Positions 24,169-24,773 of a stretch of 64,000 nt of DNA are shown here, in pieces (the first letter of the stretch is position 1; every line of letters starts with the position of its first letter). The stretch is from positions 2,383,833-2,447,832 of the forward strand of contig OZ220716.1 in NCBI GenBank assembly GCA_965116795.1, in the 5' to 3' direction. The DNA comes from Gammaproteobacteria bacterium (lineage in GTDB: Bacteria; Pseudomonadota; Gammaproteobacteria; JAJFKG01). A program made the translations under genes and the position numbers. Below the pieces are notes generated by a model that worked only from the letters and a program-made list of their open reading frames with translations, did not search any database and was not told the DNA's origin.

Positions 24169-24254
24169 ATCATCAACTATGTTACGTCACTTAGTTCAAA
24201 AAAAACCGTCATCCTGGAGAGCGAATGCAATGAGCGAATCCAGGATCCAGTCTT
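24169..24254 (+). repeat. Left inverted repeat containing a CGTC-tagged palindrome
   Basis: ATCATCAACTAT...GTCAC...CCGTC-ATCCTGGA-N20-TCCAGGAT-CCAGTCT; reverse complement of 24690-24773 with few mismatches. Confidence 0.95.
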
Positions 24255-24290
24255 TAGAGAGCATCAGCATGCTATACATTACACAATTTG

Positions 24291-24584
24291 CTACCAAATA
24301 ATATCATGGTATAGGTCTTTCCACGCTGGATTAAATTCAGTAATTAAGCGAATTTTCCATTCTCGTTTCCATACTTTTAATGCTTTTTCTCGTTCAAAGG
24401 CACTTACTGCATCACCACACTCTTCAAAATACACTAATTGACTAACGTTATATTTTTTAGTAAATCCTTTTACGAATTTTTCTTTATGTTGCCAAATTCG
24501 TTTAATCAAATCAGATGTGACTCCAATATATAAAGTACCATAGGGTTTGCTGGCTAAAATATAAATAAAAAATTGTTTTTTCAT
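24291..24584 (-). CDS. Small GIY-YIG nuclease (97 aa)
   Basis: FIYILAS...TLYIGVTSDLIKRIWQHK, FEREK, FNPAWKDL. Confidence 0.92.
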   Translation of the reverse strand: MKKQFFIYILASKPYGTLYIGVTSDLIKRIWQHKEKFVKGFTKKYNVSQLVYFEECGDAVSAFEREKALKVWKREWKIRLITEFNPAWKDLYHDIIW

Positions 24585-24689
24585 CAGTGAAAATAATATA
24601 ATTAATCTATAATACGAAAAATTGTAATTGCCATGCATTCTGAGTGCAATTTTTATTTTTAAGTTTGTATTTATTTTTTGAGCAACATG

Positions 24690-24773
24690 AAGACTGGATC
24701 CTGGACTCACTCATTGCATTCGCTCTCCAGGATGACGGTTTTTTGAATTAAGTGACACAATATAGTTGATGAT
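24690..24773 (-). repeat. Right inverted repeat containing a CGTC-tagged palindrome
   Basis: AGACTGGATCCTGGA...TCCAGGATGACGG...GTGAC...ATAGTTGATGAT. Confidence 0.95.

Follow-up and report, generated by a model that had tools for sequence, protein, structure and literature searches.

A likely Ssn-family nuclease gene boxed by long, bulged CGTC hairpins in a gammaproteobacterial genome

Introduction

Is a small nuclease gene that lies between inverted copies of a CGTC-tagged hairpin the enzyme that recognizes, or even spreads, this hairpin? The question is raised by a locus in a window of 64,000 nucleotides (the whole stretch of DNA that was analysed) from a Gammaproteobacteria bacterium (assembly GCA_965116795.1, contig OZ220716.1, positions 2,383,833 to 2,447,832). 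Positions given below are those of the window, and positions with the prefix G000:C1 are those of the genome.

The original prediction for this locus described CGTC repeats without a transposase, which agrees with Di Nocera et al. 2013 (PMC3733652), where CGTC repeats were defined and the passages on them report no transposase or associated enzyme. It also proposed a distinct class of element, and this part is not supported: the locus belongs to the published Ssn/SRM system, and the comparison with REPtrons is already made in the discussion of the same paper (Chenal et al. 2025, Nat Commun 16:2388, PMC11893778). According to the passages of that paper on the family, Ssn corresponds to cd10448, and a CGTC hairpin flanks 71% of the homologues on at least one side and 42% on both sides. 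Four Ssn homologues showed sequence-specific binding of single-stranded DNA (ssDNA) and cleavage just upstream of their own hairpin, and in N. meningitidis SsnA lowers transformation by hairpin-bearing DNA (PMC11893778). As the Ssn system is already published, the locus is no discovery, and its long bulged hairpin is a local variant.

Organization of the locus

The left arm (24169-24254, + strand) and the right arm (24690-24773, - strand) form the top inverted repeat among 96 pairs in the window, with 78 identities in 86 alignment columns, 6 mismatches and a 2-nt indel inside an A-run (blastn 90.7%, E 1e-27). Inverted arms of about 85 bp around one 97-aa GIY-YIG gene had thus been placed correctly by the prediction. 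Each arm contains CGTC-ATCCTGGA-(20 nt)-TCCAGGAT-CCA, with the hairpins at 24207-24248 (+) and 24696-24737 (-), which belong to a dispersed family named family A here. Several CGTC-tagged palindromes had been expected in each arm; the CGTC...CCA hairpin is present, but there is one full palindrome per arm together with an outer leader of 38 nt, and the apparent loop is a structured inner stem. The left arm consists of the leader (24169-24206, with degenerate CGTCAT heads at its start), the hairpin and a CCAGTCTT tail, while the right arm starts with the tail and runs through the hairpin to the leader, which extends up to 24773.

A single ORF lies between the arms (24291-24584, - strand; 97 aa), and it is assigned as the ssn gene, encoding a single-domain GIY-YIG nuclease, by Pfam, homologue alignment and a structure model. 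An AT-rich spacer (24604-24695, -) leads from the right hairpin to the start codon, about 90 nt of which are common to a gene-less family-A copy at G000:C1:924684. The whole hairpin-ssn-hairpin unit of 605 bp has one copy in the genome. Its anatomy and its family membership are shown by sequence comparison.

To the right of the unit there are two extra CGTC hairpins, both of other types, so the unit belongs to a hairpin cluster. The third hairpin (24841-24882, +) is divergent and preceded by a second leader (24806-24840), which places it back to back with the right arm; its DNA fold has -13.2 kcal/mol (z -5.0). The fourth (24926-24961, +) has a 10-bp stem and a GCGAAGC tip (z -5.2). A degenerate leader copy (24140-24171, +) abuts the left arm, with 84% identity to 24813-24844. 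The arm hairpins themselves fold modestly in ViennaRNA (z -0.9 to -1.65), with little strand asymmetry in the energy model, and a scan for promoters stayed at chance level (6 vs 4.6).

Other features of the window were noted in passing. To the left of the unit (16841-23899, -) there is a biosynthetic-looking cluster with a PLP decarboxylase (Pfam; 29-30% match to the related genomes G001 and G002), a small protein resembling a carrier, and ORFs judged by eye to be similar to an acyl-CoA dehydrogenase, an exporter and an AMP-dependent ligase. A 1692-aa protein with three repeated domains, long Ser-Pro tracts and no Pfam match is encoded at 28406-33484 (+). Positions 16784-16859, 44021-44186 and 55502-55655 carry a further dispersed repeat that has no relation to the CGTC hairpins.

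The protein encoded in the window

The 97-aa protein, well within a limit of <150 aa, contains the Pfam domain GIY-YIG (PF01541, E 6.6e-13) and no other. The ORF finder also gives a form of 139 aa, but its GTG start falls within the right hairpin and most homologues among the matches listed are 94-101 aa long, so 97 aa is the likely product. Protein matches at E <= 0.001 were found for at least 7997 of 8000 scored. In the phage collection there was one weak match (32%), thus no sign of phage carriage in that collection. The PDB sequence search returned nothing but WD-40 repeat proteins, a spurious result of adding up weak domain scores, and the single NCBIfam match, to an intron endonuclease, was sub-threshold.

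For comparison with the published family, a 94-aa protein from a 2.17-Mb N. gonorrhoeae record was used, whose gene sits amid 9 exact NTS motifs and which is taken as the putative gonococcal counterpart of SsnA, not as N. meningitidis SsnA itself. (This record, L026, is found in a plasmid collection and is apparently a chromosome labelled as plasmid.) The window protein is 54.8% identical to it over 93 of 94 aa (99% coverage; tblastn E 8.8e-30 against this genome). With this gonococcal query, the window protein lies within E < 1e-10 over >75% of the query and below an identity of at least 60% to SsnA, which a second protein of the same genome reaches (61.1%). In the paper's description of its filters, the Ssn clade itself is defined at E < 1e-10, and identity of at least 60% is a conservative filter of some analyses (PMC11893778).

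The mutant assays of that paper targeted Y6, Y17 and E64 of N. meningitidis SsnA (PMC11893778). In the gonococcal protein, Y6, Y17 and E64 align with Y8, Y19 and E66 of the window protein. Together with R29 and H33, the latter three are invariant in 88 of 88 aligned homologues. An AlphaFold model made with an alignment is a single domain with pLDDT 93, and the single-sequence fold has pLDDT 58. The closest PDB structures are UPF0213 and Slx1, which are GIY-YIG proteins; no match reaches E <= 0.001, and sequence identity to the two is 18-26%, compared with 55% to the SsnA counterpart. A quick tree of poor resolution, with 50 of its 93 inner branches open, has 90 Ssn-like rows, including the window and Neisseria proteins, split from other GIY-YIG proteins by a long branch (SH-aLRT 94). 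The window protein is thus likely an SsnA homologue with its predicted catalytic residues intact.

CGTC hairpins beside homologous genes

In order to survey the flanks of homologous genes, 80 metagenome loci were collected, of which 59 with at least 300 nt on both sides were kept and 21 with short flanks were left out. A CGTC-type hairpin occurs within 500 nt at 46 of these 59 loci and on both sides at 36, where dinucleotide shuffles expect 0.5 and 0.0, respectively. After reduction to non-redundant loci (80% protein identity), the numbers are 30 of 38 and 25 of 38. The flanking enrichment that the original prediction had named as its check was therefore found. The inverted layout of the window is shared by 30 of 39 two-sided loci, the window counted. 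At 7 of the 38 non-redundant loci, a hairpin is present that has no SRM match.

Weak GIY-YIG loci served as control and had hairpins in 0 of 8 cases, although 3 of the 8 are identical Ssn-like fragments; this set excludes L012-L015, L017, L022 and L024, weak GIY-YIG loci of relatives with no tblastn match. Among seven strong homologues in related genomes, a hairpin was detected within 500 nt in two and in none of the other five, indicating that the link between gene and hairpin can be lost. At one locus (L019, G030:C2), six SRM copies with an exact period of 220 nt stand upstream of the Ssn homologue.

Family A, a long bulged hairpin

Family A has 29 (strict) to 36 (relaxed) copies genome-wide, and its regular expression, which has 29 matches in the genome, had none in any of 10 locally shuffled versions. 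Twenty-five copies of 42 nt follow the order CGTC, 8-bp stem, GA, 6-bp inner stem, 3-nt loop, GAG, stem and CC. Their 3-nt loop is GGA in 13, GAA in 5, GCA in 3 and other in 4, and the stem halves are spaced by 20 nt in 25 of the 29 copies. All 25 have a paired outer stem, in which 2 of the 8 positions show compensatory changes. For the inner stem, 89.8% of the positions are paired in 18 distinct stems, while shuffled partners reach 68.8% in average and 82.4% at most in 5000 shuffles, a test that ignores kinship among copies. In six copies, the two arms among them, inner positions 3 and 4 are occupied by G-A and A-G. DNA forms stable motifs both of tandem sheared G-A pairs and of GNA triloops. 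These positions and the GA/GAG loop are accordingly read, from base identities, as putative tandem sheared G-A pairs under a GNA triloop.

The published SRM pattern, HGTCWYN(0-2)YYVSBRHN(0-5)WNVSBRGN(0-2)RNCYNB, has 36 matches in the genome and none within about 5 kb of the window gene, even with the middle gap widened to 25. Since the arm hairpins do not match it, they are filed here as an SRM-like variant and not as SRMs, and their recognition by the window protein is extrapolated.

Copies of family A are mostly intergenic (4 of 36 inside ORFs of at least 120 aa, which cover 82% of the genome). There are 6 close pairs among the 36 copies and most are unpaired, and no replication-strand bias was found (22 of 36, p 0.24). 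The leader also stands upstream of a few solo family-A copies; its 13-nt head has 12 occurrences at one mismatch where 5.5 are expected, and is credible only where the hairpin comes next. Tandem duplications of CGTCAT heads upstream of the hairpins (4 of 36 for family A and 2 of 31 for family B, described below, vs a background of 3.9%) are not convincing genome-wide. Two further forms were observed. Copies at G000:C1:257901, 708443, 1028884, 1606705, 1759448 and 2294007 are extended to 59-64 nt by a nested second hairpin within the outer stem (TCCTTG...CAAGGA, with GTAG/GTCG in the loop), possibly a three-way junction. At G000:C1:886203-886234, the arm leader occurs alone, as a short palindromic element whose ends are CCGTCATCAAC and which has no family-A hairpin.

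Outside this genome, the exact long-form pattern has 3 matches in the genome collection. In one of them, a Patescibacteria record (L110), an Ssn gene with 45.7% identity lies between copies of the same GAGA...GAG hairpin, arranged as in the window. Long hairpins are also found near the two other Ssn genes of that genome; the other two matches (L108 and L109) have no Ssn gene within 1200 nt. By eye, the Patescibacteria unit (L110:600-1040) lies just downstream of an ORF whose DNA resembles the 3' end of recA. In the quick, poorly resolved tree, the window protein does not form a group with the Ssn proteins whose genes stand beside long hairpins. Long bulged hairpins escape the published motif (here, in a Patescibacteria genome and at 7 of 38 loci), so that both the association of Ssn with repeats and the choice of Ssn specificities for ssDNA tools are larger than the motif suggests.

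A second ssn gene with its own repeat family

A profile search of the genome found two Ssn genes. The second one (2162661-2162951) encodes 96 aa, 63.8% identical to the window protein and 61% to the Neisseria protein, and its locus (G000:C1:2162528-2163269) has canonical hairpins of another family, family B, on both sides. Family B has a 9-bp stem and a 5-nt loop, and beside the paralogue it matches the SRM pattern. It includes 12 head-to-head dimers with spacers of 58-63 nt, which are REPIN-like; 3 of its 31 copies are inside ORFs of at least 120 aa, and it shows no replication-strand bias either (16 of 31, p 1.0). Each gene is boxed by its own repeats, which come within 200 nt on either side, and is 25-200 kb away from the other family. 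For the window gene, the distances are 43 and 112 nt to family A and 25-91 kb to family B; for the paralogue, they are 105 and 193 nt to family B and >130 kb to family A.

The paralogue groups (support 87) with the metagenome proteins L029, L030, L035 and L037, which carry a hairpin of the family-B type, and its group also includes L051, with a longer hairpin. This clustering indicates that gene and repeat travel together, and is not evidence of enzyme specificity; what adjacency of gene and repeat shows is co-inheritance. In the cleavage assays of Chenal et al. 2025, some cross-cutting between Ssn homologues is reported (PMC11893778). With two Ssn genes, each beside its own repeat family, the genome offers a clean 2x2 comparison of specificity.

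Mobility and alternative explanations

In its strong form, the original prediction would mean that the 605-bp unit is an autonomous mobile element bounded by terminal inverted repeats, which the nuclease moves as a whole by its 85-bp arm ends, with solo hairpins as non-autonomous derivatives. The two arms are indeed mutual closest relatives among the 29 copies (scores 66 vs at most 51), and the distribution is patchy: the same-genus genome G001 (90% complete) has no match to the Ssn protein or to either repeat pattern, yet named close homologues span several phyla among the matches listed. Moreover, the gene-less family-A copy at G000:C1:924684-924817 carries its 90 nt of ssn upstream spacer with a score of 68, where the other 27 copies reach at most 26. 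But the similarity of the arms continues beyond the expected cut site for about 40 nt. Among the other inverted loci, such outer similarity is found at only two, both with tandem hairpin arrays. No convincing target-site duplication was seen at the unit (best AAGAA, offset by 3 nt), which is present once in the genome, and four sequencing runs gave no variants or joints against the window. The protein has no transposase domain, and GIY-YIG enzymes hydrolyse DNA; they are not known to have a covalent phosphotyrosine or strand-transfer step. Such an element is therefore unlikely here, and we prefer to see in the 85-bp arms a hairpin plus leader that was recently duplicated or homogenised, rather than transposon ends set by a cut site. 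Nick-initiated recombination, or an older gene copy that decayed, would account better than precise excision for the ragged flanks shared with the gene-less copy.

Some further observations bear on distribution. An empty-site search with the DNA of 22600-26700 had no match in G001 or G002, where flanking proteins match at just 29-42%; these relatives are too distant to reveal an empty site. G002 has one Ssn homologue and 3 canonical hairpins elsewhere. The gene-less copy has an aminotransferase-like gene on one side and a small ORF on the other. In the literature outside subscription journals, no paper after Chenal et al. 2025 showing Ssn mobilisation was found.

A different doubt concerns the substrate. 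The gene might encode a generic ssDNA or structure-specific repair nuclease of UPF0213/Slx1 type, or a promiscuous Ssn, with the long hairpins being RNA-level repeats (for termination or mRNA stability) that accumulated nearby. The nearest solved folds are those of UPF0213 and Slx1, three hairpin types adjoin the gene, and the copies of both families are mostly intergenic, all of which would suit this explanation. Identity to these proteins is however far below that to the SsnA counterpart, the weak GIY-YIG loci with their three Ssn-like fragments had no hairpins, and the repeats on both sides of each paralogue are of a separate family, and we consider a nuclease without a specific hairpin substrate very unlikely.

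Proposed explanation

Judged from sequence comparison, the locus is with high probability a hairpin-ssn-hairpin unit of the Ssn family, whose SsnA-homologous protein likely binds the flanking CGTC hairpin in single-stranded form and likely cuts a few bases upstream of it. The proposal that the nuclease is the cognate enzyme of the CGTC palindromes is very probably right, given the enrichment in flanks and the assays on other family members described by Chenal et al. (PMC11893778); the activity and cognate preference of the window protein, and a propagation of the repeats, we infer. In this mechanism, the Ssn protein would bind the CGTC strand of the hairpin in DNA that becomes single-stranded during uptake, replication or repair, and would cut just upstream of CGTC. 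Such cutting may restrict incoming ssDNA that bears the repeat. The nicks may also lead, by host recombination or template switching in repair, to new hairpin copies with variable flanks, and dispersed copies would stem from repair of an Ssn nick since the chemistry is hydrolytic, with no known strand transfer. The window protein would be tuned to the long form, which combines an 8-bp stem, a GA/GAG internal loop, a 6-bp inner stem and a loop of 3 nt, whereas the second paralogue would be tuned to the canonical form of 9 bp. Each gene and its hairpins would travel together by horizontal transfer.

A bolder version of the Ssn reading is offered tentatively, as a possibility that we hold to be somewhat doubtful. 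Ssn proteins would be the propagators that CGTC repeats have so far lacked, and two orthogonal pairs of enzyme and hairpin would coexist in this genome. The window enzyme would read the extended hairpin with its sheared G-A pairs and GNA triloop and would seed copies from its own locus by nick-and-copy recombination. The solo copy with the ssn upstream spacer would be a record of such seeding. If true, it would be a selfish repeat system powered by a hydrolytic nuclease, without a transposase. A genome with two Ssn genes bears on a question raised by Di Nocera et al. 2013 and Chenal et al. 2025, namely whether Ssn enzymes create and spread CGTC repeats.

Comparison with known systems

Like REPtrons (RAYT/TnpA-REP with GTAG REPs), the unit has a small nuclease gene between inverted copies of a dispersed hairpin, a tetranucleotide tag beside the stem and a presumed ssDNA substrate. 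The enzyme is however GIY-YIG, its sole domain, where REPtrons have an HUH/Y1 transposase gene, and the tag is CGTC instead of GTAG. QMITE1/2 of Coxiella were also considered and set aside as no match, as QMITE2 is of the GTAG type and the text on these elements mentions no GIY-YIG (PMC5896051).

The repeats share many features with the CGTC-tagged REPs in the family descriptions of Di Nocera et al. (PMC3733652). The CGTC tag (unpaired), the 8-bp stem opening with AT and the CCA tail of CGTC-1 to -4 (dRS3, RPE-4, RPE-6) are found here, as are head-to-head dimers and several families per genome, and family B has the 9-bp stem and 5-nt loop of CGTC-3/4. The stems of 8-9 bp thus fit, while the loop of 4-5 nt is replaced in family A by a 20-nt structured insert (the authors note exceptions; PMC3733652), and most family-A copies are not in close pairs.

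The closest system is Ssn/NTS (cd10448, GIY-YIG_unchar_3) as presented by Chenal et al. 2025, in whose discussion the arrangement NTS-ssnA-NTS is likened, as a hypothesis, to IS200/IS605 and REP systems (PMC11893778). Alike are the single-domain GIY-YIG protein of 94-97 aa with conserved Tyr, Tyr and Glu, the CGTC-tagged hairpins with a CCA end on both sides of the gene, and the dispersal of the same hairpin at mostly intergenic sites. In contrast with the system presented there, the window hairpin is 42 nt long, with a GA/GAG internal loop and a covarying 6-bp inner stem, and falls outside the published SRM pattern; its arms share an extra 38-nt leader, the copy number is low (about 30-36), and the genome has two paralogues with separate repeat families.
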